Source: Chiloscyllium plagiosum (taxonomy: Eukaryota). Taken from it: a stretch of 32,977 nt of DNA. Shown here one piece after another: positions 951 to 32,977 of the stretch. Position 1 is the first letter of the stretch. Every line of letters starts with the position of its first letter. The position numbers and the translations under genes are program-made. The stretch is from positions 39,381,489-39,414,465 of the forward strand of contig NC_057719.1 in assembly GCF_004010195.1 (NCBI RefSeq). Direction: 5' to 3'. Below the pieces are notes generated by a model. That model was not told where the DNA came from, made no database searches, and saw nothing but the letters and a program-made list of their open reading frames with translations.

Positions 951-1719
951 GTCAGAATTCAAGATGTCTGTTGTTTCAAAGTGCATCCTTCCACTATTGT
1001 CATCAAGCACCCAATCTATTTTCAAAAATGCAATAGATAGAGCAGCAAGAAATACTATGATTACATTTGCATTGAAAGTCATTTCTTTTCAACAAATGTT
1101 TTTAGAAGTTGCAGACAGTTAATGATTGCCTGATCTTACTGAGGCACCATTCATGTCACAGTCCACTTTAATTACAGCTGTTATTCTAAGTCCAGTGTAA
1201 CAATTCCCTTTAGGAAAACTTCAGTTTTGAATATACAATGATTAGAACCATAGAAATAGGAATGATACACAAAAGATGACCATTCAGTTAGCTTTAGAAA
1301 ATTTCCAGCTTTTGCCATACCAGCACATCGAGATAATTTTTCAAAGGTCTGAGTAGTGTGGGCTATGGTGACATGTGTGGCATAACTGGGCAACAAATGT
1401 GGCAATGTCCATCTCAATGACATGATCAATTCGCTCCAGCTGTGAGATGCCAGTTGACAATCATTATTGCTTGTTAAACATCTTAAAGCCACTAAATCAC
1501 CTCATTAATATTCAGACTTCCATTCCACTAAATTCACAAAACAAGCTAGACCTGGGGCAAAACTCAACAAGGTAATCAGAATGTGTAGCTGGCAGATCCA
1601 GCTTGCTGCTTGCTCCAAATTACCTTCATGTTCGACAGCTAGAAACAACATCTTGGCCCAATCTATCACACCAGCCAACTGTACTCCTCCTCGATTGAAA
1701 TTGACATCTGAACTAGCCA

Positions 1720-1932
1720 GGAGAAAGTGAGGTCTGCAGATGCTGGAGATCAGAGATGGAAATGTGTTGCTGGAAAAGCGCAGCAGGTCAGGCAGCATCT
1801 AGGGAACAGGAGAATCGACGTTTTGGGCATTAGCCCTTCTTCAGGAAGAAGGGCTAATGCCCGAAACGTCGATTCTCCTGTTCCCTAGATGCTGCCTGAC
1901 CTGCTGCGCTTTTCCAGCAACACATTTCCATC
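1720..1932. mobile_element. Palindromic non-autonomous Penelope-derived insertion (fold-back of the hammerhead-bearing terminus), copy 1
   Basis: Inverted arms 1750-1842 and 1845-1937 with one mismatch; 13-bp TSD TCTGAACTAGCCA at 1707-1719 and 1933-1945; homologous to the terminus of the Penelope element at 24992-25120. Confidence 0.88.
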
Positions 1933-2298
1933 TCTGAACTAGCCAACCCATTGTGACATTCCTCGCACTTCTACTCTATACTGTCAGTGCAAATGCTTCA
2001 ATGGAGACACTTTGCACACAGAGAAGCACCCAACCCTCAAAGTGGATTAGGCTGCATCTTAGGGATGCTCATTTGCTCTCTTAGCACTTGGTCACTGAGT
2101 GCCTACCTGCATTATCACAGCATTCTTGCCTTGCCTTGCTATTCCAATTAGCACTCACACAACCAAGTTGCTTGCCTTGCATCTAAGCAATCTTCAGTCT
2201 AGTGGGTGCACATCTTGCTCTGCACATCAATCTCATACCTGCTACATGCCAACAGGTTACACAGCAAACACAGTGGATCTGTAGCAGACAGCCACATA

Positions 2299-3640: not shown

Positions 3641-4646
3641 GCTGTAGGGAGGAAGGAGAGATGCATCACAGTGGTTGGGTGTAGCTGTTTACATTGCAGC
3701 TTTTCAAAGTAAAAACAACTACAATTTTACTGTTAATTTTACTGGTCTCAAAGATTGGCCATTTAAGCCGTGCCCACCCTTAAAAGCAATTCAGGTATTT
3801 AAAGGGAACTCACATCTGTAAGTGTTTGGTGATCTACAAGACCCATTGACGCCAAAGTTTCTGCTCGTAAGCCCACTGATGAATATGACCTGCACTTTGC
3901 AAAGCTCTTGGGTAGGTGCTGAGAAGATACTTTCCCTTTCTAGAGAGAAAGTAATCTTTCACATTTCCTGCCCAAGAGCTATATGGTTGAGCTATTGATT
4001 ACACTTTAGGTTAAGGTACACAGATTATTAAATTGTACAGGAAGAGATTAATAGGGAGTCAAGAAGGTAACGTTAAAGCCAAGATAGATCAGCCAATATC
4101 TTACTGAATGGAAGAGAAAGCTTTAGCAAAATGGCCAAATCCAGCTAGTCGAGGTATTGCACTTAAGTGTATGACAGAATTTTTACAAAGCATGAAGAGG
4201 CCATTTTGGCCATCATGGTTCTGTAAATGGGAAATGGCACTGGGTGAATTGCCCATTCTCACCAATTAACCATGCACATTTTAAGTTAGATCCTTTTGAC
4301 TGCTTGGATTGAATCTGCCTGCCTACATCTCAAACAGTGCAGTCCAGAGCTTAATTACTGGCTGAATTTTAAAAAAAATTCACGTCACTTTTGCAACTTA
4401 TGCAAATTACTATAAATCTTTTCCCTCTCATTCTCACTCCTTTCATGAGTGGGAAGAGTTTCTCTATAATTTATTATGTTCAGTTTTAAAATATTTTAAT
4501 GACACAAACTGCAATAGGGCTCTTTCATTCAAAACATATAGTTTTATGTAATTGTTAAAAGGGACTATGGTATTACAGCATTATATTCACAGAGAAAGAG
4601 AAATATAAAACATTTCTCTCACATCGATTGGCTCCTTCAATTCCAT

Positions 4647-4747
4647 AGGCAAAAGTGAGGACTGCAGATGCTGGAAATCAGAGTCTAGATTAGAGTGGTG
4701 CTGGAAAAGCACAGCAGGTCAGGCAGTATCCGAGGAGCAGGAAAATC
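4647..4747 (-). mobile_element. Solo Penelope terminal fragment (3' product of hammerhead cleavage)
   Basis: Matches the Penelope tail at about 24995-25090; flanked by direct repeat TCAATTCCAT (4637-4646, 4746-4755). Confidence 0.8.
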
Positions 4748-4884
4748 AATTCCATGTTATGTCTTTTTCATTAGAATATTGAAACACCAAGAGTGGAGGG
4801 AGGGGTGAGCTATTTTTGTTAAAATAGTGGAAAATCATTCAAATTACTCATTTTAATCCTTTCTATTCAGTCATAGATATACAT

Positions 4885-5002: not shown

Positions 5003-6440
5003 GCTATGCTTGCATCTTTGTTGGCTATGTCGAATAGTCCCTCTTTGGTACCTACACAGGTACCGTGCCCTAACTCTTCCACCATTGCATCGATGACTGC
5101 ATCAGTGCTGCATCCTGCACCCAGGCTGAACTGGAGCAATTCATCAATTTCGTCTTCAACTTCCGCCCTGCCCTTAAATTCACTTGGTCTATCTCAGACA
5201 GCTCCCTCCCCTTTCTTGACCTCTTTGTTTCCATTTTCGTCAACAGTCTACAGTTGGGCATTTACTATAAACCCACAGACTCCCTCAACTACCTGGACTA
5301 CTCCTCTCATCCACTATCCTGCAAGAACTCCATCCCATTTTCCCAATTCCTCAGCCTCTGTCGCATTTGCTCAGACGAGACATTCCACTCCCAAACATCC
5401 CAGATGTCCACCTATTTTGAAAATGCTTCTTTCCCCTCCCCCATCATGTAGACAACCCTTCACTGCACCTCCTCCATTCTCCACTCCACTACTCTAAACC
5501 ACCCTCCACCTCACCCTTGTCCTCTCCCACCACCCCACCATTCTCCACATCCAATGTATCATTCTTAAGCACTTCCGCCAACTCCAGTTAGACCCAACCA
5601 CCAAGAACATGTTTCCCTCCCACCCAACGCAACGGTTCCCTTTGCTAATCTTTGGTTTGTGTTACTCTTCCCACTAACCAACACCACCCCTGCTCCACTC
5701 CCCCTCCCCCCACCAAAATCCCTGGTACCTTCCCCGGCAACCGGAAAAGATGCAAAACATGCTGGCACACACTACCCCTTATCTCCATTCAGGGCCCCAA
5801 ATAGTTCTTCCAGATGAGACAGAGGTTCACCTGCTTCTCCTTCAATCTAGTTTTCTGTATCCGGTGCTCCCGAAGTGGTATTCTGTACATTAGGGAGACC
5901 AAACATAAACTCAGGCCATGTTTCGTCAAGCATCTCAGCCAGGCCCACAGGGGCCAGCCTGGCCTCCTGGTCACCACCCATTTTAATTCGCCCTCCCACT
6001 CCCTTTCTGACATGACCATCCTCAGCCTCTTCCATTGCCACAGTGAATCAGATCGCAAATTGGAGGAAAAACACTTCATCTTCTGCCTGGGCAGCCTATA
6101 GCTCAGAGGATTCAACATTGAGTTCTCCAATTTGAAATAACCGTCCTTCCTATCCCCCAACTCCCTTTCTAGCCCTTGCCCTTGCCCCTGCCCCTACCCC
6201 TCCCTTCCATTGTTCTGACCAACCCTTCCTTCCAGCTACCAACTGGATTAATTCCTTTCATTAACCAATCAGGTCATACTCACTATCTGTGTTCACACAT
6301 CCCTACCTCACCACTCCACCCCTCTCTGCACCCAGTACCCTTCCCACCCACTCAGTCCTGAAAAAGGGTCGCACCCGAAACGTTGACTTTTTCACCTCCT
6401 GATGCTGCCTGCTGAGTTCTTCCAGCCTCCTGCTTGTTAA
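5003..6440 (+). mobile_element. 5'-truncated, decayed Penelope-like element (RT C-terminus, GIY-YIG endonuclease, 3' hammerhead)
   Basis: ORF pieces IYYKPTDSLNYLDYSSHPLSCKNSIPFSQFL (PLE RT thumb) and NLVFCIRCSRSGILYIRETKHKLRPCFVKHL...LEEKHFIFCLGSL (GIY-YIG); frameshifted. Confidence 0.88.
6354..6388 (+). ncRNA. Minimal hammerhead ribozyme of the Penelope terminus, core mutated
   Basis: AGTC-CTGAAAA-A-GGGT-CGC-ACCC-GAAAC-GTT-GACT: stem I AGTC/GACT and stem II GGGT/ACCC; the CUGANGA core has G8>A, so it is probably inactive. Confidence 0.6.
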
Positions 6441-6887: not shown

Positions 6888-7087
6888 AGTCACAGAGATG
6901 TACAGCACAGAAAACAGACCCTTAGGTCCAACTTGTTCATGCTGAGCAGATATCCTAACCTAATCTTGTCCTATTTGCCAGCATTTGGCCCGTATCCCTC
7001 TAAATTCTTCATAATCATGTACCCATAAAGTCGCTTCTTAAATGCTATAATTGTACTAGCCTCCACCACTTCCTCTGGCAGCTCATT
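6888..7087 (-). mobile_element. CR1 LINE 3'-end fragment
   Basis: Reverse complement of the CR1 3' end at about 30655-30855. Confidence 0.8.
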
Positions 7088-8218
7088 TTGTTGAAAAATA
7101 CTCAGTCATAGAGTTGTACAGCACGGAAACAGATCTTTCGGTCCAACTCATCCATGCTGACCAGATATCCCAACCCAATCTAGTCCCACCTGCCAGCTCC
7201 CGGCACACATCCCTCCAAACCACCCCCCTCCACCGACTCATATACCCATCAAGTTGCCCTCCAAATGTTGCAACTGCACCAGCCACCACCACCTCCTCCG
7301 GCAGCCCATTCCACACAGGCATCATCCTCCGAGTGAAAAATCTGCCCCCCATGTCTCCCCACATCTTTCCCATCTCACCCCAAACCCATGCCTTCCAGTT
7401 CTGGACTCCCCAACCCCAGGGAAAAGACTCTGTCATCCATCCCATCCATGCCCCCTACAATTTCACAAACCTCCATAAGGTCACCCCTCAGCCCCCTACA
7501 TTCCAGAGAAAACAGCCCCAGCCCATTCAACCCCTCCCAATAGCCCAAATTCTCCAATCCTGGCAACATCCCTACAAACCCCCTCCAAGCTTCACAACAA
7601 CCCCCGATAGGAAGGAGACCAGAACCACACGCAATACTCCAACAGTGGCCCAACCAATGCCCTGCACAGCCGCAACACCACCCCCAAACACCGCACTCAA
7701 TACTCTGACCAACAAAGGAAAGTATACCAAACGCCTTCTTCACTATCCCATCCACCCACAACTCCACCTCCAAGTAGCCATAAACCTGCACTCCAAGGTC
7801 TCTTTGTTCAGCAACACTCCCTAGTACCTTACCATTAAGTGTATAAGTCCTGCTAAGATTTGCTTTCCCAAAATGCAGCACCTTATATTTATTTAAATTA
7901 AGCTCCATCTGCCACTTCTCAGCACATTGGCCCATCTGATCAAGATCCTGTTGTAATCTGAGGTAACCTTCTTCGCTGTCCACTACATCTCCAATTTTGG
8001 TGTCACCAGCAAACTTACTAACTTTACCTCTTATTCTCACTTCCAGATCATTTATACAAATGATGAAAAGTAGTGGACCCAGCACAGATCCTTGTGGCAC
8101 TCCACTGGTCACAGGCCTCCAGTCTGAAAAACAACTCTCTACCACTACCTCTGCCTTCTACCTTTGAGCCAATTCTGTATCCAAATAGCGAGTTCTACCT
8201 GTATTCCATGAGATCTAA

Positions 8219-8425
8219 AATGTGTTGCTGGAAAAGCGCAGCAGGTCAGGCAGCATCCAGGGAACAGGAGAATCGACGTTTCGGGCATAAGCCCTTCTTC
8301 CTGAAGAAGGGCTTATGCCCGAAACGTCGATTCTCTTGTTCCCTGGATGCTGCCTGACCTGCTGCGCTTTTCCAGCAACACATTTTCATCTCTGATCTCC
8401 AGCATCTGCAGACCTCACTTTCTCC
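8219..8425. mobile_element. Palindromic non-autonomous Penelope-derived insertion, copy 2 (opposite orientation to copy 1)
   Basis: Inverted arms 8217-8300 and 8303-8386 with one mismatch; 15-bp TSD TTCCATGAGATCTAA at 8204-8218 and 8426-8440. The equivalent CR1 site near 29740-29760 is uninterrupted. Confidence 0.9.
8299..8333 (+). ncRNA. Minimal hammerhead ribozyme core
   Basis: CTGAAGA(8301-8307)-A-GGGC-TTAT-GCCC-GAAAC-GTC; predicted cleavage after C8328; the 5' strand of stem I is mostly replaced by the inverted arm. Confidence 0.6.
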
Positions 8426-9837
8426 TTCCATGAGATCTAACCTTGCCAATCAGTCTCCCATGTGGAACCTTGTCAAACACCTTACTGAAGTCTATATAGA
8501 TCACATCCACTGCTCTACTCTCATCAATCCTCTTTGTTACTTCCTTAAAAAGCTCAATCAAGTTTGTTAGACATGATTTCCCACGCACAAAGCCATTTTG
8601 ACTATCCGTAATCAATCTTTGCCTTTCCAAATACATGTACATCCTGTCCCTCAGGATTCCCTCCAACAACTTTCCCACCGCTGACATCAGGCTTACTGGT
8701 CTGCAGTTCTCTGGCTTGTCCTTACCACCTTTCTTAAACAGTGGCACCACGTTAGCCAACCTCCAGTCTTCCAGCACCTCACCTGTGACTATCCAGGATA
8801 CAAATATCTCAGCAAGAAGCCCAGCAATCACTTCCCTAGATACCCACAGAGTTCTAGGGTACACCACATCAGGTCCTGGGAATTTATCCACTTTTATGCG
8901 TTTCGAGACATCCAACATTTCCTCCTCTGTACTCTGCACTCCACAAATTCATTGGAGTCCATTGCCAAAACACGGAATTTCAGTCAGTGTTATTTGTGAT
9001 TAGACAGAACCCCGCTCGAGTACATAATCTATACGGTTTGTTGCTACACTGTCAAACGTGTTCAGCTTTTTTTAAATCTGAAAATGAGCCCATTTGCTTT
9101 CATAAATGCATGTGAAAGATCGCATGGTGTATTATTTAGAGGACGAGAGTTCTTTATTTATTATTTATCGCCGCATAACTGGTCGTGAACTATTTGTTCA
9201 CTAATATGTTTCTATATATAACTGCAGAAACTTCATTTCAAACGGACTTCATCATCTGTCAAGTCTCTTTGAGATTGTGAAAGTCGCTATATAAATGCAG
9301 ATATCAATCCCTATCGTTTTTCTCCCGCAATTATTAACATATACTGTGATCGATACACAATCTCAAGCAGACGAAATAAAAATTGATGCGCACTCTGCAT
9401 CTTTACTGTTTATATAACTGCTGGAAACACGACCACGCTGCAGCCGATTCTTCTAGAAACTTAAACTGACCCGTTTCACCCAGCAGCAGAGACAATGGCT
9501 CTCAATTTCACAACCTCTCTCATGATGCAATCAGCTTCAACCCTGCCAACTGCTCAGCCAACCGACACACCAGTCCGCTCTCGCGAGATCACCAACGCCT
9601 ACACGCGTTCACCTCAACCAAACTTCACAACCTTGCGCGTTGGCGTCACACTGAATGACTAGCCGCTGAAACACGTACAACAAAAGCCGCAGCCACGGCT
9701 TTCCAATGAGCAAACCAGTAGCTGAGCAACAGCCAATCGTAGCACGGGCTGGAGGCGGGTTTAGCATGCTATCAAGCTAGGTTGCACCGTCACGAACTGG
9801 CGTCGATATAGAAAGGCGTTTTTTTTTTGTGGGTGGT

Positions 9838-11274: not shown

Positions 11275-14200
11275 GTAAGAGTGATTGGAAATGTTTGAAT
11301 TGGTTTCAACTTGGAACTTGACTGTCAAAAGCTAAAATGTAATCTTCCTTAGGTCGAGGGCAAAGGGAATGGTATAAAGACAGTAATAGTCAACATGGTT
11401 GATGTTGCCAAGGCGCTTAATCGGCCTCCAACGTGTAAGTATTAATTCTAGCTTCATATGCCAGAGGTTATGCCATTGTCTAGCTCTAACTAGAAATTTT
11501 ATTACAGTTCACTTTCTTAACTGTTCTACACCGATGCAAAAGCTTTAGCTATTAAAATCTCTCTCATTCTATTTTAGAAATAGGTAGCTAGTCTGACCAC
11601 TTGTGCCATCTGGTTATTTTAATGAAAAATTCCAACAGTTGACAATAGTGTTGGAGAGTGTAATGTAGATATGTGCAGCATGGGAAAGGGCCCTTTGGTC
11701 CAACTTGTCCATGTCAGCCAGATATCTTGACCTAATCAAGTGGCATTTGTCACCATTTGGCCCATATCCCTCTAAATCTTTCCTGATCATACACCCATCC
11801 AGATGTATTTTTAATGCTATAATTGTACCAGCCTCCAACACTTCCTCTGGCAGCTCATTTCATACAGGTACCACCCTCTGTGAAAAAGTTGTCTCTTAGA
11901 TCCCTTTTATATCTTTCACCTCACCCTAAACCTATGCCCTCTAGTTCTGGACTCTTCCAACCCAGAGAAATGATCGTGTCTCTTCATCTTATCCATGCCC
12001 CTTGTGATTTTATAAACTTCTATAAGGTCATCCCTTAGCATCCATTCCAGGAAAAAAACTGTCCCAGCCTATTCAACCTCTCCCTATAGCTCAAATCTTC
12101 CAACCCTGGCAGCCTCCTTGTAAATCTTTTCTGAACCATTTCAGGTTTCACAACATTCTTTTTGGTTGAAGCCCACCACATAACAATGGCTTATTAAATC
12201 TGCATTTTCTGTAGAATTTCCCATTGAGCTGTTCTGAATCAGCCTTTTAAAACAAAAACATTGAATTTCAATATCTGTCTTGGAGCTTATTCCACCCTGA
12301 AGGGAGGTGATGAATAAGGGCATATTTTCCCAAAATAATGAAGGGATTTAATGAAATCTGCTTTATTCTTTACATGGTGAAATAACTAGATATTTGGCTG
12401 TCGGTTATAAATATAAGAATTGAGGTTATCTTCGGCTGTATGTACTATGGAGCACATCTGTACAGCTTTCTCAAACCATAAATCCATTGCACCCTTTTTA
12501 AATAAACAATCCCAGCACTACATGTACTTATATCTAGGTTTTAATAGCTGAATTGCTGAGGCATAAAGTCACTTTGTCCACTTCATTTTTTTTTTTAGAT
12601 TATGTAATTTGGGGAAAATGAGGTCTGCTGCAAAAAAATTGAGGTACTTTTGATTGCAGTTAGTCCTTTCATCTAATGCCAAACCCTAGTCGTCGGACTG
12701 TCCTGGTGCAGAAAATGAGATCACTGAATTAAATCTGTGATTTGCAGGTGGTAAATGCTGGTTGCTGAAACAATGCAAAAGTCAGCTGTACTATCTTATT
12801 TTGGCTGAGCTTGATGATCACTGGATATTAAAAGTTGAAAATTTTACTAATTCTGTAATGTTTTGATTTGAACATTTTTGTTTAAAATCTTAGATCCCAC
12901 CAAGTTTTTTGGTTGTGAGCTGGGAGCTCAGACCCAGTTTGATTCAAAGAATGACCGTTATATTGTGAATGGATCTCATGAGGCGAATAAGCTGCAAGAC
13001 ATGCTGGATGGATTCATTAGGAAATTTGTCCTTTGTAATGAGTGTGAGAATCCTGAAACTGACCTGGTGAGTGTTCAGTAAGTATGAAATACTGTTGGTC
13101 AGTACAGAACACTTTTTTTTCTAGCTTTACATGGAGCATGATTAAAACCATTTTGAGGGTAGGGGTCTCTTGAAAAGCTTGGTGCAGTTTGTCACTTTGT
13201 CTGTAGGTTTGAATGTTTTCAATTTGCCAGTGTCTATCACAAGCTCCACAAACCTGTGCATTTTATTCATTCAGTTCTTCTGTCTTTGCAGCCTGCCATG
13301 CTGTTCATCTCCATTTGAGGATTTCTGCCTAATGTTGGCAGGCCACTATCATGTCTAATAGACTTCATGTACTGACACCTTCAAGGCCCTCTTCAATCTT
13401 CTGCCAATTTGTTCCTCACCAGCCACAGCATGATGCCACAGCCATGTCCTCCAGTATTTCAAAAGGGCTTTTGTCATTTTTGGGAGAAGGAAGACTAACC
13501 TTTTTCCTCCCAAGTGACAGTTTGTACTTTTTAAGCATACAGTTACTGCTGTTCAATGATCCAGTTAACAGACTAGTCACTGCACCATATCCCTGTTGAG
13601 GCCACAGGCATGGACCCAAGTTTTTTACTTTTTTTAATCTTCTACTTTAGTGCTTGCTATTGTGACCTGAAGCTTTCCAATGAAAGCTTGAAGCAAACTT
13701 GAGAAACAGATCTTCTAACTACTTTTGGCTCTGCACTGATTTTCAAACTCAACATGAGTATAATTTTCATTGCCTCCTGTGCCCACAAAACCTAAAAAGT
13801 ACATTTGCTGAATTCAGGTGGTTGCTGTTCAGGTGTTTACACCTCATGTAGCTGCCAGCATTACTCCTGTACTGAGTTTACTGTGGCGTTAGTATAAGTT
13901 ATTTTAGACTTCAATTTTCTTCTCTCCCCTCTAGTTTGATGGGGGGGGGGGGAGAGTTGTTACTGAGCTGATGTAAATAGGTAGCAGGCAGAGAATTATA
14001 ATACTTCTATTAGACTTGCAGAATATCCAACATTAAACCTTTAGACATAGACTTGAACCCAGTTACTTTTTTCTCCTTGGTTTAAATGGAGTTTTGTAAA
14101 CTGTACATGACCTGCAGTTTTTCAAATTTAACAAAGATGTGATCTTAATTTTTCAGCATGTCAATCCAAAGAAACAAACTATTGGTATTTCCTGTAAAGC

Positions 14201-17133
14201 CTGTGGATACAGAGGCATGCTTGACACACGCCACAAACTCTGCACGTTCATTCTTAAAAATCCACCTGGTAAGTGTAGTGTTTGTTTTTCTTTACCATTT
14301 GAGTTGCAAAGCTGAAATCCAGCAGTAATTAAGATATTTACATAATGTGTTCCAGAAAATGGAGATGGTGGCTCAGCCAAGAAAGAGAAGAAAACCAAAA
14401 AGGGTAAAGACAAGGAGAATGGATCAGTACCTAATTCAGAATCATCCACCCACAATGAGTTTGATGCACCAGAAGCAGTGGTAAATCTTCACCTTGTACA
14501 TAAGAATTTGCAGAACATCCCAGACAGGCTATTTCAGCTGCTAGTTCTTGACAATTTAACAAGTTACACTCCTTATTGTTCTCCTTTCTCCTTTACTGGC
14601 TTGTTTTTTTTTCCAAATGTTTTATCCAATTTTTTTTTTGGAAGCTGATTTGAATATGCTGCTTGTGAGCAATACAGTCTGGATCCTAAACACTTCCTCA
14701 ACCAGACCTACCACTTTGGCTGCTTGGCTTGCACACAATTTTAGTTAAACTGCTTGATGTTCATAGAGTCTCTGGAGGGGGAAAAGTTAATCTATTAACC
14801 CACTTCTCCGTTAGGATGGTGAAGATGATGACGATGATTGGTGTGAAGAAACTACAGAGGAAGCCCAGAGGCGTCGAATGGGTGAAATCAGTGAGCATGC
14901 CAAAAACTTGACACTCAGTGATGATCTGGGAAAAACATTAGAGGAAAGAGTGAACTTATTCTACAACTTTGTCAAGGTATTCATTATGTCCTGCATCTTC
15001 AAATATATTGGCCCCTGAGTTTATGGCTTTGCTTCTGAAATTCAAAGTCTAACTTTCTCATGGTTTCCATTTAGAGACTTAAGTAGAGTCTATGCAGCAG
15101 AGAAACTGGCTTTTCATCCCCACTCATCCATGCTAACCAGGTTTCCTAAACTGAACTATCCCTTTTTGCCTATGTTTTGGCCCATATCCCTCAATGTTTC
15201 CTATCCATGTACCTGTCCAAATGTTTTTTAAATGCTGTGTTGTACCTGTCTCTACTATTTCCTTTATCATTCCAAATAAGCCTCGCCTTAACTCAAATAC
15301 TCCAGTCTTGGCAACATAGTAAAAAAAATTTTGCTCCCTTTTGCAGTTTAATAACATCCTGTAGCAGGTTGACCAGAACTGTATGCAGTATTCAAATTAT
15401 GGCTTTGTATAGCTGTATCATAATGACATCCCAACTCCAGGACTTGATGCTCTGACTAAAGGCAAGCATGAACAATAAGTATTTATATAGGCTGTACAGA
15501 AGTTGGGTTTAGAATCACTCTGATCTAATACCAATTATGGAAATTTGCCTTTAAGTTTGGTTCCTCTTCTCCCATGTGTGGGTGCATTAGCTATAACAAG
15601 CTTTATTGACTTCGCTTGATTTCTGAACAGAGATTATTGAAAGTCTGAAATCTTATCAACTTGCTAACTTTTGCTGTGATATCTAAAATGCAGAAAAAGA
15701 AGGAAGAGGGCATTATTGATTCTGCTGATAAAGATCTTCGATCAGAAGCTGAAAGACTGGATGTAATAGCTATGGGCCCTCTCATACTAAGTGAACTGCT
15801 TTTTGATGAGAACATACGAGATCAGATCAAGAAATATAAACGGCACTTTCTACGTGTAAGTAGTTTTTCCCTCCAACTGAACAAATCTTCAGATGCTAGA
15901 AATCTGACATGGCTGGAGAAACTCCACCAGTCTGGCAGCATCCATGGAGAGAAGGCAGATGGTGGGTCTGAAAGTTCCCTGGAATCAACCCTAACTGCTT
16001 TTGCTTCATAGGTGTTGCTGGAATGGAGTATCTCCAGAAATTCGTTTTTAAAAAACTTTAGATTAACACTGCCTTACAAACTGTTCACTTGACAGTTCTG
16101 CCATGGTAATAAAAAGGCTCAGAAGTATTTACTCGGTGGCTTTGAGTGTCTGGTGAAAATACATCGGGACCAACTGCTGCCCAGAGTTCCACATGTATTG
16201 AAGCAGCTTTATGATGCTGATCTCTTGGAAGAAGAGGTTATTCTTGCCTGGGCTGAGAAAGTAAGTTGAACAAATGTGAAAACTATTTTTGGCTGAATGT
16301 TGATATGTATTGGGTTTTTGTAAAAATTGATGGAAAAAGTTGGGGTGGATGTACTACTATGCACTGGCAATTAATGGATTGTTTATCAGTATTCTGTATT
16401 TGAAATTAAGAGCCATTGAGAATTTGGCTGAATGACATCCGTTCAATTTCAAGGGTAGTTGAGTGAAAATCTCAATTTTAAAGTTTGAGAATTCCTAGTC
16501 TGACTTTTTTGAGTTAGAGGTGACTAATTCTATGCACCTTGTTTGTTCTTAGTCAAGGTTCTGCAATCTGAAGTCTAATACTTAAAAAAAAACTAGTAGC
16601 TTAACATTGTGTATGGGTTTCAGTATTGATGTTTAGTTCTGATTTAACTAGAATTTTTATTGTATGCAAGGTATCCAAGAAGTATGTCCCCAAAGAACTT
16701 GCCAAAGAGATACATGCAAAGGCAGATCCATTTATTAAGTGGCTAAAAGAAGCTGAAGAGGAATCTGAAGAGGAAGAGGAGGAATCTGAAGAGGAGAAAG
16801 ATGTGGAGGTAAATATTTAAATTATAACTATCTTAGTTCCCTTCTAACTTATGAAGTTAGAACACTAGTGCTCCAATGTGTACTAAGTGTTGATTTCAGT
16901 TGTCAATGTACCCTTTGATCTAGTACATCTATCCAATTTTTTTTTTGGTTTTGGCAGCTCTAATTTGGAGAAATCTGGGATTTTATGCATAATGTGGGTG
17001 TGTTGCATTCATTAAACAAATCCTGTTTATTTTACAGGTGGTTTACGATAGCTCTGCAAGAGAACTGAAAGTGGAAACTCTGAAACCCATTAAGACAAAA
17101 GAGGAAGAGGATATAGATATTGATGCTATTTGA
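11203..17133 (+). CDS. EIF5: Eukaryotic translation initiation factor 5, 428 aa; join(11203..11274,11353..11434,12894..13066,14157..14268,14356..14480,14815..14976,15694..15855,16096..16260,16671..16808,17038..17133)
   Basis: All introns are GT-AG, phases are consistent, and the CDS totals 1287 nt with no internal stop. Protein begins [34 protein letters not shown] (GAP Arg15) and has the C4 zinc site CNEC/CKAC, the DWEAR motif, the W2/HEAT domain with AA-boxes, and the C-terminus DIDIDAI*. Confidence 0.97.
11353..11434 (+). CDS. EIF5: EIF5 coding exon 2
   Basis: [30 protein letters not shown] acceptor, GTAAGT donor. Confidence 0.96.
11660..12160 (-). mobile_element. CR1 LINE 3' fragment in EIF5 intron
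   Basis: Reverse complement of about 30355-30845. Confidence 0.85.
12894..13066 (+). CDS. EIF5: EIF5 coding exon 3
   Basis: (Y)[57 protein letters not shown], donor GTGAGT. Confidence 0.96.
14157..14268 (+). CDS. EIF5: EIF5 coding exon 4
   Basis: [37 protein letters not shown], donor GTAAGT. Confidence 0.96.
14356..14480 (+). CDS. EIF5: EIF5 coding exon 5 (linker)
   Basis: (E)[41 protein letters not shown], donor GTAAAT. Confidence 0.9.
14815..14976 (+). CDS. EIF5: EIF5 coding exon 6
   Basis: [54 protein letters not shown]. Confidence 0.94.
15085..15470 (-). mobile_element. Decayed CR1 LINE 3' fragment in EIF5 intron
   Basis: TTTTGGCCCATATCCCTC...GGCAACAT...ACATCCCAACTCC...AAAGGCAAGCATG match the reverse complement of the CR1 3' region. 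Confidence 0.65.
15694..15855 (+). CDS. EIF5: EIF5 coding exon 7
   Basis: [54 protein letters not shown]. Confidence 0.95.
16096..16260 (+). CDS. EIF5: EIF5 coding exon 8
   Basis: [55 protein letters not shown]. Confidence 0.95.
16671..16808 (+). CDS. EIF5: EIF5 coding exon 9
   Basis: [49 protein letters not shown] acceptor. Confidence 0.94.
17038..17133 (+). CDS. EIF5: EIF5 coding exon 10 (stop)
   Basis: [34 protein letters not shown]. Confidence 0.94.
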   Translation: MVYDSSARELKVETLKPIKTKEEEDIDIDAI

Positions 17134-24991: not shown

Positions 24992-26447
24992 GGGTAAAAA
25001 CAATGACTGCAGATGCTGGAAACCAGATTCTGGATTAGTGGCGCTGGAAGAGCACAGCAGTTCAGGCAGCATCCGAGGAGCAGTAAAATCGACGTTTCGG
25101 GCAAAAGCCCTTCATCAGGAATAAAGGCAGAGAGCCTGAAGGGTGGAGAGATCAACTAGCGGAGGGTGGGAGTGGGGAGAAAGTAGCATAGAGTACAATA
25201 GGTGAGTGGGGGAGGGGATGAAGGTGATAGGTCAGGGAGGAGGGTGGAGTGGATAGGTGGAAAAGAAGATAGGCAGGTAGGACAAGTCATGGGGACTGTG
25301 CTGAGCTGGAAGTCTGAAACTAGGGTGAGGTGGGAGAAGGGTAAATGAGGAAACTGTTGAAGTCCACATTGATGCCCTGGGGTTGAAGTGCTCCGAGGCG
25401 CAAGATGAGGCATTCTTCCTCCAGGCATCTGGTGGTGAGGGAGCGGCGGTGAAGGAGGCCCAGGACCTCCATGTCCTCGGCAGAGAGGGAGGGGGAGTTG
25501 AAATGTTGGGCCACAGGGCGGTGTGGTTGATTGGTGCGGGTGTCCCGGAGATGATCCCTAAAGCGCTCTGCTAGGAGGCGTCCAGTCTCCCCAATGTAGA
25601 GGAGACTGCATCGGGAGCAACGGATACAATAAATGATATTGGTGGATGAGCAGGTAAAACTTTGATGGATATGGAAGGCTCCTTTAGGGCCTTGGATAGA
25701 TGTGAGGGAGGAGGTATGGGCGCAGGTTTTGCAATTCCTGCGGTGGCAGGGGAAGGTCCCAGGATGGGAGGGTGAAAACAGGTCCCAGGTAATCACGGAG
25801 GGAACGGTCTTTGCGGAAAGGAGTGGGGAGGGAAATATATCCCTGGTGGTGGGGTCTTTTTGGAGGCGGCGGAAATGTCGGTGGATGATTTGGTTTATGC
25901 GAAGATTGGTTGGGTGGAAGGTGAGCACCAGGGGCATTCTGTCCTTGTTACGGTTGGAGGGGTGGGGTCTGAGGGCAGAGGTGCGGGATGTGGACAGATG
26001 CGTTGGAGGGCATCTTTAACCATGTGGGAAGGGAAATTGCGGTCTCTAAAGAAGGAGGCCATCTAGTGTGTTCTGTGGTGGAACTGGTCCTCCTGGGAGC
26101 AGATACGGCGGAGGAATTGGGAATACGGGATGGCATTTTTGCAAGAGGTAGGGTGGGAAGAGGTGTAATCTAGGTAGCTGTGGGAGTCGGTGGGTTTGTA
26201 AAAAATGTCAGTGTCAAGTCGGTCGTCATTAATGGAGATGGAGAGGTCCATGAAGGGGAGGGAGGTGTCAGAGATGGTCCAGGCAAATTTAAGGTCAGGG
26301 TGAAATGTGTTGGTGAAGTCGATGAATCGCTCAACCTCCTCGCAGGAGCACGATGTGGCGCCAATGCAGTCATCAATGTAGTGGAGGAAGAGGTGGGGAG
26401 TGGTGCCGGTGTAATTACGGAAGATCGACTGTTTTACGTAGCCAACA
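24992..26447 (-). mobile_element. 5'-truncated Penelope-like element (RT YIDD motif, GIY-YIG endonuclease, hammerhead-bearing 3' end) with TSD
   Basis: FLHYIDDCIG...DIFYKPTDSHSYLDY (RT); CHRRNCKTCAH...NIIYCIRCSRCSLLYIGETGRLLAERFRDHL (GIY-YIG); 13-bp TSD AATTTCAATAACA at 24979-24991 and 26448-26460. Confidence 0.93.
25085..25123 (-). ncRNA. Minimal type I hammerhead ribozyme with intact core
   Basis: Minus strand ATTC-CTGATGA-A-GGGC-TTTT-GCCC-GAAAC-GTC-GATTTT; predicted cleavage between 25091 and 25090. Confidence 0.75.
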
Positions 26448-26739
26448 AATTTCAATAACACTTTTACCATCTTCAGCAGAATTCTACCAACCTCAGCCAC
26501 AGTTTACCAACTTCAGTGAAAACCATCCAATTTCAATATCCCTCTGCCAAACTCACTAAGTGTTGAAAAATTGTTGTAAATGAACACAATAAACAGCTAT
26601 TTCTACTATTGTTGGCAGAATTGTTGCTCAACATCAACAATTAGAAATAAATTGTGGATTTATTCAACAGAAAAAGTATTTTGCTGGATTATCCTGACAT
26701 TGAGAACCTTTGATTTGTTAGAAGGAATTTTACCTAAAA

Positions 26740-29562: not shown

Positions 29563-30859
29563 AAGGACTGATTAGGGATAGTCAACATGGCTTTGTGCTG
29601 GGAAATCGTGTCTCACAAACTTGATTGAGTTTTTTGAGGAAGTAACAAAGAGGATTGATGAGGGCAGAGCGGTAGATGTGATCTATATGGACTTCAGTAA
29701 GGCATTCGACAAGGTTCCCCATGGGAGACTGATTAGCAAGGTTGGATCTCACAGAATACAGGGAGAACTAGCCATTTGGATACAGAACTGGCTCAAAGGT
29801 AGAAGACAGAAGGTGGTGGTGGAGGATTGTTTTTCAGACTGGAGGCCTGTGACCAGTGGAGTACCACAAGGATCGGTGCTGAGTCCTCTATTTTTTGTCA
29901 TTTACATAAATGATTCGGATGCGAGCATAAGGCGTACAATTTGTAGATGACACCAAAATTGGAGGTGTAGTGGACAGCAAAGAGGGTTACCTCAGATTAC
30001 AACAGGATCTGGACCAGTTGGGCCAATGGGCTGAGAAGTGGCAGATGGAGTTTAATTCAGATAACTGCAAGGTGCTGCATTTTGGGAAAGCAAATCTTAG
30101 CAGGACTTATACACTTAATCGTAAGATCCTAGGTAGTATTGCTGAACAAAGAGACCTTGGAGTGCAGGTTCATAGCTCCTTGAAAGTGGAGTCGCAGGTA
30201 GATAGGATAGTGAAGAAGGCATTTGGTATGCTTTCCTCTATTGGTCAGAGTATTGAGTACAGGAATTGGGAAGTCATGTTACAGCTGTACAGGATATTGG
30301 TTCGGCCACTGTTGGAATTGTATGCAATTCTGGTCTCCTTCCTATCGGAAAGATGGTTGGAAACTTGAAAGGGTTCAGAAAAGATTTACAAGGATGTTGC
30401 CAGGGTTGGAGGATTTGAGCTATAGAGAGAGAGGCTGAACAGGCTGGGTCTGTTTTCCCTGGAGCGTCGGAGGTTGAGAGGTGACCTTATAGAGATTTAC
30501 AAAATTATGAGGGGCATGGATAGATTAAATGGACAATGTCTTTTCCCTGGGATGGGGGAGTCCAGAACTAGAGGGCATAGGTTTAGGGTGAGAGGGGAAA
30601 GATATAAAAGAGACCTACGGGGCAACTTTTTCACAGAGAGTGGTACATGTAAGGAATGAGCTGCCAGAGGAAGTGGTGGAATATGGTACATTTCAACATT
30701 TAAAAGACATTTGGATGGGTATATGAATAGGAAAGGATTGGAGGGATATGGGCCAGGTGCTGGCAGGTGGGACTAGATTGGGTTGGGATATCTGGTCGGC
30801 ATGGACGGGTTGTACCGAAGGGTCTGTTTCCATGCTGTACATCTCTATGACTCTATGAC
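29563..30859 (+). mobile_element. 5'-truncated CR1 LINE (RT pseudogene plus 3' UTR)
   Basis: DVIYMDFSKAFDKVPH, SGVPQGSVL, LERVQKRFTRM, RGDLIE; frameshifts; tail (CTCTATGA)2. Confidence 0.93.
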
Positions 30860-32756: not shown

Positions 32757-32977
32757 AACCTCTTCCCTTCCACCCCCACTACCCCCACCTCACCCTCCTC
32801 CTCCCCCAACCTCCTCCTCCTCCTCCTCCCCACCCTCCTCCTCCTCCTCCCCCAACCTCCGCCTCCTCCTCCCCACACTCCTCCTCCTCCCCCAACCTCC
32901 TCCTCCTCCTCCTCCCCCAACCACCTCCTCCTCCTCCTCCTCCCCCATCCTCCTCCTCCGCACCCTCGACCCTCCTC
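32757..32977. repeat. (CCT)n / C-rich low-complexity tandem repeat, running off the window's right edge
   Basis: Units such as CCCCCAACCTCCTCCTCCTCCT are repeated; almost no G on the + strand. Confidence 0.92.

Follow-up and report, generated by a model that had tools for sequence, protein, structure and literature searches.

Head-to-head palindromes of a Penelope-like element in the shark Chiloscyllium plagiosum as probable products of twin priming

A 213-bp head-to-head insertion of the 5' repeat of a Penelope-like element (copy 1) was analysed in a window comprising 32,977 nucleotides of Chiloscyllium plagiosum DNA (contig NC_057719.1, positions 39,381,489 to 39,414,465), together with its relatives across the genome. 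The palindrome consists of 5'-end sequence from a Penelope-like family present in very high numbers, and there is a strong case that two cDNAs, in one form or another, contributed to it. Copy 1 was probably made by twin priming, with both cDNAs probably copied from the same RNA and their ends joined by host repair. The original prediction had taken the second arm as a fold-back record of second-strand synthesis; this reading was given up, as the short arm owns the extra bases at the centre in 45/86 and 22/40 palindromes of two samples. Features are listed below. Element positions were numbered from C3 of the ribozyme (+1), which is window position 1844 on the minus strand.

1707 to 1719: left target-site duplication (TSD), 13 bp, present once at the empty site of a related species
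1720 to 1847, minus strand: long (tailed) arm, element positions -2 to +125, the putative cDNA from the distal start site
1720 to 1749, minus strand: unpaired portion of the optional 30-40 nt Penelope 'tail', as defined in PMC11167929
1813 to 1847, minus strand: minimal type I hammerhead, assigned from its sequence, with features as in PMC4209133
1840 to 1847: junction TTC-AG-GAA, where the two arms meet head to head through 3 nt of microhomology; in copy 1 the long arm owns the AG
1845 to 1937, plus strand: short (tail-less) arm, +3 to +90, or to +95 with the microhomology, lacking C3-U4
1933 to 1945: right TSD, whose first 5 nt (TCTGA) also fit the element
8204 to 8440, plus strand: copy 2, with the same junction as copy 1, of another subfamily and in opposite orientation

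The inverted arms of copy 1 (1750-1842 and 1845-1937, 93 bp each) are separated by the spacer AG at 1843-1844 and differ by a single mismatch, 1824 T vs 1863 G, a case of CpG decay. The TSD, TCTGAACTAGCCA, occurs at both 1707-1719 and 1933-1945. Contigs of a related species (runs X9 and X10) fuse window position 1706 to 1933, with one TSD copy and no insert; the insertion therefore postdates the split from that species. The arm length, 2-nt spacer, single mismatch and 13-bp TSD of the original prediction were all verified by coordinates and by this empty site. The short arm stops at an ordinary priming site. Its outer-end microhomology of 5 nt is at the high end of the range among copies, and the proposed TCTGA overlap is real in that 1933-1937 fits both element and target. 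The flanks (1300-1743 and 1911-2351) showed 0 differences to contigs of one run, which is possibly the assembly's own source. No independent contig or long read bridging the palindrome centre was found, and data from a second individual (X5) neither spanned the insert nor passed over it.

The copy 1 junction is the reverse complement of that of copy 2 at 8294-8309, as predicted. Copy 2 has a 15-bp TSD (8204-8218 and 8426-8440) and sits in a LINE whose paralogue at 29.6-29.9 kb is without the insert. LINE remnants were seen at 6900-9000, 11670-12160 and 29580-30850, with RVT_1 fragments at 7378-8157 and 8418-8948; the copies near 8 kb and 30 kb are mutually inverted. A low-complexity C-rich repeat occupies the window end (32770-32977).

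The arms represent the 3' part of a Penelope pLTR: upstream, longer copies continue into a GIY-YIG domain; downstream, other copies continue into an ORF starting about 160 nt past +1. A 26-mer from the arm had 46,789 exact genome matches. The GIY-YIG domain in the ORF of locus L301 just missed the PF01541 cut-off (E 4e-4, 21.1 bits; cut-off 22.6), and that of a sister element in the window (25323-26015) scored 24.1 bits. Two cysteines lie between GIY and YIG in the L202 translation (IIYC-x2-CxxC-LYIGET); the L199 fragment gave no Pfam match. Judged by sequence, the family thus has the C-terminal GIY-YIG with two cysteines upstream of the pLTR that distinguishes EN+ Penelope-like elements, and it also has their TSDs, partial tandem or inverted pLTRs and optional 30-40 nt tail, with ends at about +91 and +126. 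Traces of reverse transcriptase (RT) comprised a YIDD motif in L193 upstream of a masked gap and a homologue (P0006) with PF00078; no intact ORF was recovered, and six 6.5-kb stretches searched for a full-length element held partial tandems or truncated copies only. The nearest proteins to the element ORF were carpet-shark proteins (62-69% identity). The element belongs to a known class and is an ordinary representative of it. A MITE or foldback DNA transposon was ruled out by the unequal arms, variable centre, 12-17-bp TSDs and many single-arm copies.

Related elements are present elsewhere in the window. A 5'-truncated Penelope of a sister subfamily (24993-26500, minus strand) has a YIDD RT remnant, GIY-YIG (PF01541) and a tailed 3' end, and contains an intact CUGAUGA hammerhead at 25085-25124. 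A more decayed Penelope fragment lies at about 5017-5700 (plus strand), and diverged, older pieces of related pLTR families at 821-879 and 15900-15958.

The hammerhead of copy 1 (1813-1847, minus strand) comprises the stem I 5' strand without A-3, CUGAAGA, a bulged A, stem II (GGGC/GCCC) and a palindromic CG. Its GAAA core is mutated to AAAA at 1824 (G12), and the predicted cut falls between 1817 and 1816. Neither arm is predicted to cleave, since one lacks C3-U4 and the other has G12 mutated. The anatomy includes the core, bulge, stem II and palindromic 15.2-16.2 of minimal hammerheads in Penelope-like elements (PLEs), in agreement with the pLTR and ribozyme originally proposed. The turn had been placed within the hammerhead; it lies at the 5' edge (stem I and C3-U4) and outside the core. 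One subfamily carries a change that completes a 4-bp stem I. An Rfam search of the palindrome returned no ribozyme family, only chance microRNA-hairpin matches far under gathering scores, and the long arm showed no folding signal (z -0.05). Element 5' ends at the predicted cut (+29) were counted at about 17/30 of 328, vs 13/30 of 194 at +30; this is at most about twofold over the neighbouring position and under 1% of arms. A solo tailed copy of a sister subfamily at window 4637-4755 (minus strand, 10-bp direct repeat) has its 5' end at +29, the first base past the predicted cut.

The variants of copy 1 are mirrored in both its arms, as are those of copy 2. They had been called copy-specific and instead mark a subfamily, with 3,289 + 3,295 exact 38-mer matches (6,584 arms). 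Arms were compared in 67 of 92 palindromes with the copy 1 junction, those with N, a complex junction or a short arm under +80 being dropped. Divergence was 2.6% between the arms of a copy, and alike in the three arm pairings between copies (7.9, 7.7 and 7.8%); in this check, set out in the original prediction, same-side arms did not cluster. At ten diagnostic sites, 0-3 of the 67 copies were discordant per site vs 17-31 expected with random pairing. Low within-copy divergence and few discordant sites indicate that both arms came from one source. Changes not common to both arms were mostly CpG decay (57 on long and 56 on short arms), and A-to-G editing was not dominant among arm mismatches (6 A>G, 13 T>C). 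Outside CpG, the 67 palindromes showed no recurrent substitution specific to one arm, apart from one 3-nt deletion in a repeat. In old copies the arms have diverged, and independent CpG mutations separate them. Because the variants are subfamily markers and one source is predicted by all models, mirrored variants cannot discriminate between the models.

Junctions are diverse, contrary to the fixed turn that had been proposed. The copy 1 junction had 1,790 genome matches, a 5-nt-loop motif had 2,957, and 4,792 palindromes retain the full start of the core in each arm. Loops of 0 or 1 nt were found in 27 of the first 50 of the latter: a 1-nt centre in 15, both arms reaching A(-3) with one base between them in 8, and no spacer in 4. 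Within the copy 1 subfamily, the first 100 matches listed include 16 inverted pairs, and 4 of them have the spacing of copy 1. The copy 1 junction occurs in every subfamily and in both polarities, each subfamily has many junctions, and many junctions contain short templated insertions. Annealing of cDNA ends ...CCCTTCTTCAGGAAT by 0-3 nt would yield all of them, and the GAA microhomology suggested at the turn is supported as GAA:TTC pairing. Junction diversity and equal between-copy arm distances also bear out the proposal that palindromes were formed at insertion and not copied from a palindromic master.

The polarity of the loop separates the models. A fold-back arm cannot exceed the first strand, and the loop must therefore belong to the tailed arm. 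Polarity was scored in individually examined copies, mostly from the start of contig C1. The sample for the copy 1 junction comprised 92 copies: the two in the window and the first 90 of the 1,790 matches, all 90 on contig C1. Of the 92, 86 combined a long with a short arm; the other six were one long+long copy and five without a visible long arm (two with N gaps). The extra ribozyme bases were owned by the long arm in 41/86 and by the short arm in 45/86 (p 0.75), and where the tail-less arm owned them the opposite arm carried about 35 nt of tail. Short ends were distributed equally in the two polarities (medians +91 and +91; KS p 0.94). For the 5-nt loop the polarity was 9:9 (30 examined: 19 simple, one of them unclear, and 11 complex), and in older CUGAUGA subfamilies the loop owner was the short arm in 10 and the long arm in 6 (16 scorable of 30). 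Of 40 unselected palindromes, 22 had the extra 5' bases in the short arm and 14 in the long arm, while one was a tie and three were unresolved; 7 of the 14 long-owner palindromes had a loop of 3 nt or more.

Outer ends were scored in an unselected set of 96 insertions (83 from the first 100 of the 26-mer matches, 13 from the first 30 subfamily matches). These were 31 solo short, 18 solo long, 40 long+short, 2 long+long, 0 short+short and 5 inverted tail+short; one long+long copy (L042) is by eye long+short, and one inverted tail+short copy (L059) is doubtful. A tailed arm was paired with a tail-less arm in 40/42 palindromes. From the solo frequencies about 20 long+short, 6 long+long and 17 short+short would be expected, vs 40, 2 and 0 observed (p 1e-11). 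Long+long copies do exist (L055, and 1/92 in the junction sample). Long ends fell at +120 to +128 in 40/40 long+short palindromes. Short ends fell at +83 to +97 in 36/40 palindromes and at +88 to +97 in 29/31 solo short copies; the short-arm ends of palindromes coincide with the 3' ends of solo copies, which are priming sites. In four insertions (L049, L064, L104 and L111; 4/96) an inverted tail stops at +82 to +103 and is joined to a short arm; these are classical non-overlapping twin-priming products. The TSD and microhomology checks of the original prediction gave, in 43 copies, TSDs of 12-17 bp (mode 14-15) and a mean of 1.7-1.8 nt microhomology between outer ends and TSD, with at least 2 nt in 21/43 short ends. 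No target consensus besides A/T richness was found. Ten solo or tail-only copies (L304, L306, L313, L325, L396, L398, L400, L413, L420 and L423) carry self-complementary additions of 4-19 nt. These are snap-back patches at the cDNA 3' end, made via GAA:TTC pairing, and they indicate that fold-back through GAA pairing is real chemistry.

The 5' ends pile up at the edge of the hammerhead, 33/49 solo copies starting between -9 and +7. Where the base before A(-3) is not the templated C, the first 100 of 9,143 matches had G 64 times, A 22 times and T 14 times; 28% G was expected (p 5e-14). Natural upstream sequence was kept in 0/30 examined A(-3) copies, and the G was clearly outside the TSD in 2/30; many extra Gs equal target or partner-arm bases. 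An extra G is a known trace of a copied cap, and A(-3) lies within TCATTCC, which matches the initiator consensus. The RNA 5' end at the hammerhead edge is thus probably capped. Alternatively, a jump to the 3' fragment left by cleavage, with GAUUC at its start, may have supplied the extra G, but this route, too, depends on run-off at -3. As no AG precedes the 5' edge, a splice acceptor there of the D. virilis kind was rejected. Nor does a start at A(-3) apply generally, since the D. virilis start site is well upstream of the ribozyme (PMC2377424, PMC4209133).

Of 30 copies that include the ORF start, 14 have a further unit that begins at -3 to -7 and is fused to varied points of the ORF, as expected under run-off and template jump. 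Short partial tandems with a unit near A(-3) joined within the first 800 nt of the element were also seen at L269, L270 and L274-L303; these are likely template jumps following run-off, a path to pLTR formation. Further 5' ends cluster at about -69 to -85 (L066, L072, L273, L275, L276, L282, L302 and L303); they include two longer long+short palindromes and possibly mark a second start site or an RT stop. In a single-cell poly(A) run the repeat was covered on both strands, with no pile-up of starts. RNA reads of both strands were present at L269:250-760 (run X21), with A>G the commonest change (14 places) and a few opposite-strand joints; transcribed palindromes may be edited there, and paralogue variation looks identical.

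The proposed order of events, with strand displacement, the cap and the repair pathway, is read from end products. The element endonuclease would cut both target strands 13-16 bp apart, and the 3' ends so released would serve as primers for reverse transcription, each at one of two sites (about +90 and +126). In copy 1 the short arm would represent the cDNA begun at the proximal site with the other target strand as primer. Each cDNA would extend to the probably capped RNA 5' end at the hammerhead edge and run off there, with RT from the distal site displacing the short cDNA strand, and host repair would unite the two cDNA ends via the 3-nt microhomology. Polymerase theta-like repair is a candidate pathway for such joining. 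Tail-only inversions would arise where distal RT halted at the first cDNA without displacement. One long and one short site per RNA would explain the long+short pairing, and priming close to the RNA 5' end would explain why 95-130-bp fragments outnumber long copies. On these grounds we lean towards two cDNAs on one RNA. We give about even weight to the wider reading that inverted repeats with a one-sided tail reflect programmed twin priming by one RNP at two fixed sites of one RNA, with a 14-15-bp staggered cut, displacement of the first cDNA and run-off at the capped first base of stem I. Several points weigh against the proposed mechanism. No intermediate was observed, strand displacement by the element RT is an assumption, and long+long copies need two RNAs or repeated priming. 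The 14/40 unselected long-owner palindromes could come from fold-back. The extra Gs often match target or partner bases, and the samples are mostly from the start of contig C1. Finally, PMC11167929 saw neither a start-site difference between strands nor priming homology, whereas outer ends here show the microhomology given above.

Twin priming on two RNAs, either two transcripts of one locus bound by a protein dimer or two repeats of a tandem transcript, is unlikely, though the most credible of the rival explanations. One subunit would start at each site and no strand displacement would be required. Poseidon is predicted to form a dimer, dimers are also considered the active form of minimal hammerheads (PMC11167929, PMC4209133), and this arrangement fits the long+long copy L055 and all polarity data. 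It needs an extra rule against short+short palindromes (0/42), though short copies are 31/49 of solo copies; tail-only inversions near the short start site suit one RNA better; and arms of mixed subfamily were found in 0/67 copies, though the subfamilies were perhaps not active together. Self-primed fold-back of one cDNA or antisense RNA, with pairing of the 3' GAA to a TTC further upstream and copying of the entire second arm from the first, has been proposed in print (Arkhipova et al. 2013; PMC3846280) and is improbable here. The snap-back additions on solo and tail-only copies, the permitted polarity of copy 1 and the constant single subfamily of the arms speak for it. It cannot yield the tail-less loop owners and is refuted by them as a general route, and self-priming on an antisense template (PMC3846280) fails here because it makes the same polarity prediction. 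Fold-back also leaves the second-arm ends at the solo priming site in both polarities unexplained, and demands 0-2-nt loops in thousands of copies (in copy 1, a 3-bp stem and a 2-nt loop). Singly, some long-owner copies, copy 1 included, may have formed in this way.

Pre-formed palindromic masters, transcribed either way and 5'-truncated, would give two polarities and mirrored variants, and a few junctions do recur thousands of times. This explanation, which we hold to be slightly less probable still than fold-back, is largely refuted by the junction diversity (one junction in every subfamily and both polarities, many junctions per subfamily), by equal arm-pairing distances and by ends at the priming site, which truncation would miss. 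Short+short products are absent, the arms show no recurrent specific substitution outside CpG, and their mismatches are chiefly CpG decay and not A-to-G editing. That the assembly collapsed a longer spacer, or that gene conversion later made the arms alike, scarcely comes into consideration. The centre of copy 1 is unbridged by independent records, which leaves room for collapse; against both stand the identical flanks (in a run that may be the assembly's source), independent CpG mutations between arms, diverse junctions with insertions and the diverged arms of old copies.

Head-to-head pLTRs, the junction palindrome and the one-sided tail have been described before (PMC3846280, PMC8557442), and the origin of PLE inverted repeats with a one-sided tail is a named open problem (PMC8557442). 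In a search mostly outside subscription journals, with supplements unopened, no paper applying twin priming to Penelope inverted repeats was found, and the available text of bioRxiv 10.64898/2026.07.22.740005 and PMC5625713 held nothing further on mechanism. The structure is thus known, and a genomic case for twin priming of Penelope palindromes was not found in print. The inverted pLTRs of Adineta vaga Pen2a and Pen3, present in few copies, were read as self-priming on an antisense template (PMC3846280). They share with the shark family the junction palindrome, a 30-40 nt tail on one end, a TSD, partial tandems and a GIY-YIG with two cysteines between its motifs. In contrast, the shark genome has thousands of ORF-less palindromes, 13-16-bp TSDs and a polarity that speaks against self-priming as the main route. 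The minimal type I hammerheads of metazoan PLEs (PMC4209133) likewise have CUGANGA, GAAAC-GUC, a bulged base before stem II, a G10.1-C11.1 pair and a palindromic CG replacing stem III; unlike them, the copy 1 arms are predicted not to cleave, and the ribozyme is apparently at the very 5' end of the RNA.

In LINE-1 twin priming, the nearest known mechanism, reportedly described by Ostertag and Kazazian in 2001, both target strands are said to prime cDNA on one RNA, leaving a TSD-flanked inversion with cDNA ends joined by microhomology. The two cDNAs reportedly cover abutting parts, the second site being found by chance homology. The four tail-only inversions match this directly. Priming from opposite strands with outer ends at priming sites is also indicated here, indirectly, by the solo 3' ends and symmetric polarity. 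Unlike in LINE-1, the second site appears programmed and the cDNAs mostly copy the same stretch, giving a palindrome: inverted and direct parts overlap fully in 42/96 insertions and are non-overlapping in only 4/96.

The closest biochemical parallel is the Poseidon element PAc of Anolis carolinensis, which in vitro cuts and extends both target strands from a pair of RT start sites that flank the tail some 35 nt from each other, with uncleaved RNA as the main template (PMC11167929). It too has a minimal hammerhead close to the ORF start. The PAc ORF starts in stem II, and here about 160 nt past the ribozyme start; PAc is described with an ATT cut preference and no priming homology (PMC11167929), whereas the shark insertions show 1-2 nt of microhomology and an A/T-rich target only. 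The copy numbers in the shark genome suffice to separate models of inverted-repeat formation, and the result ties to the two-site, two-strand activity of purified Poseidon, making it testable in an existing in vitro system. If twin priming is correct, the thousands of shark palindromes are a quantitative fossil record of the Penelope cycle and of head-to-head cDNA joining.
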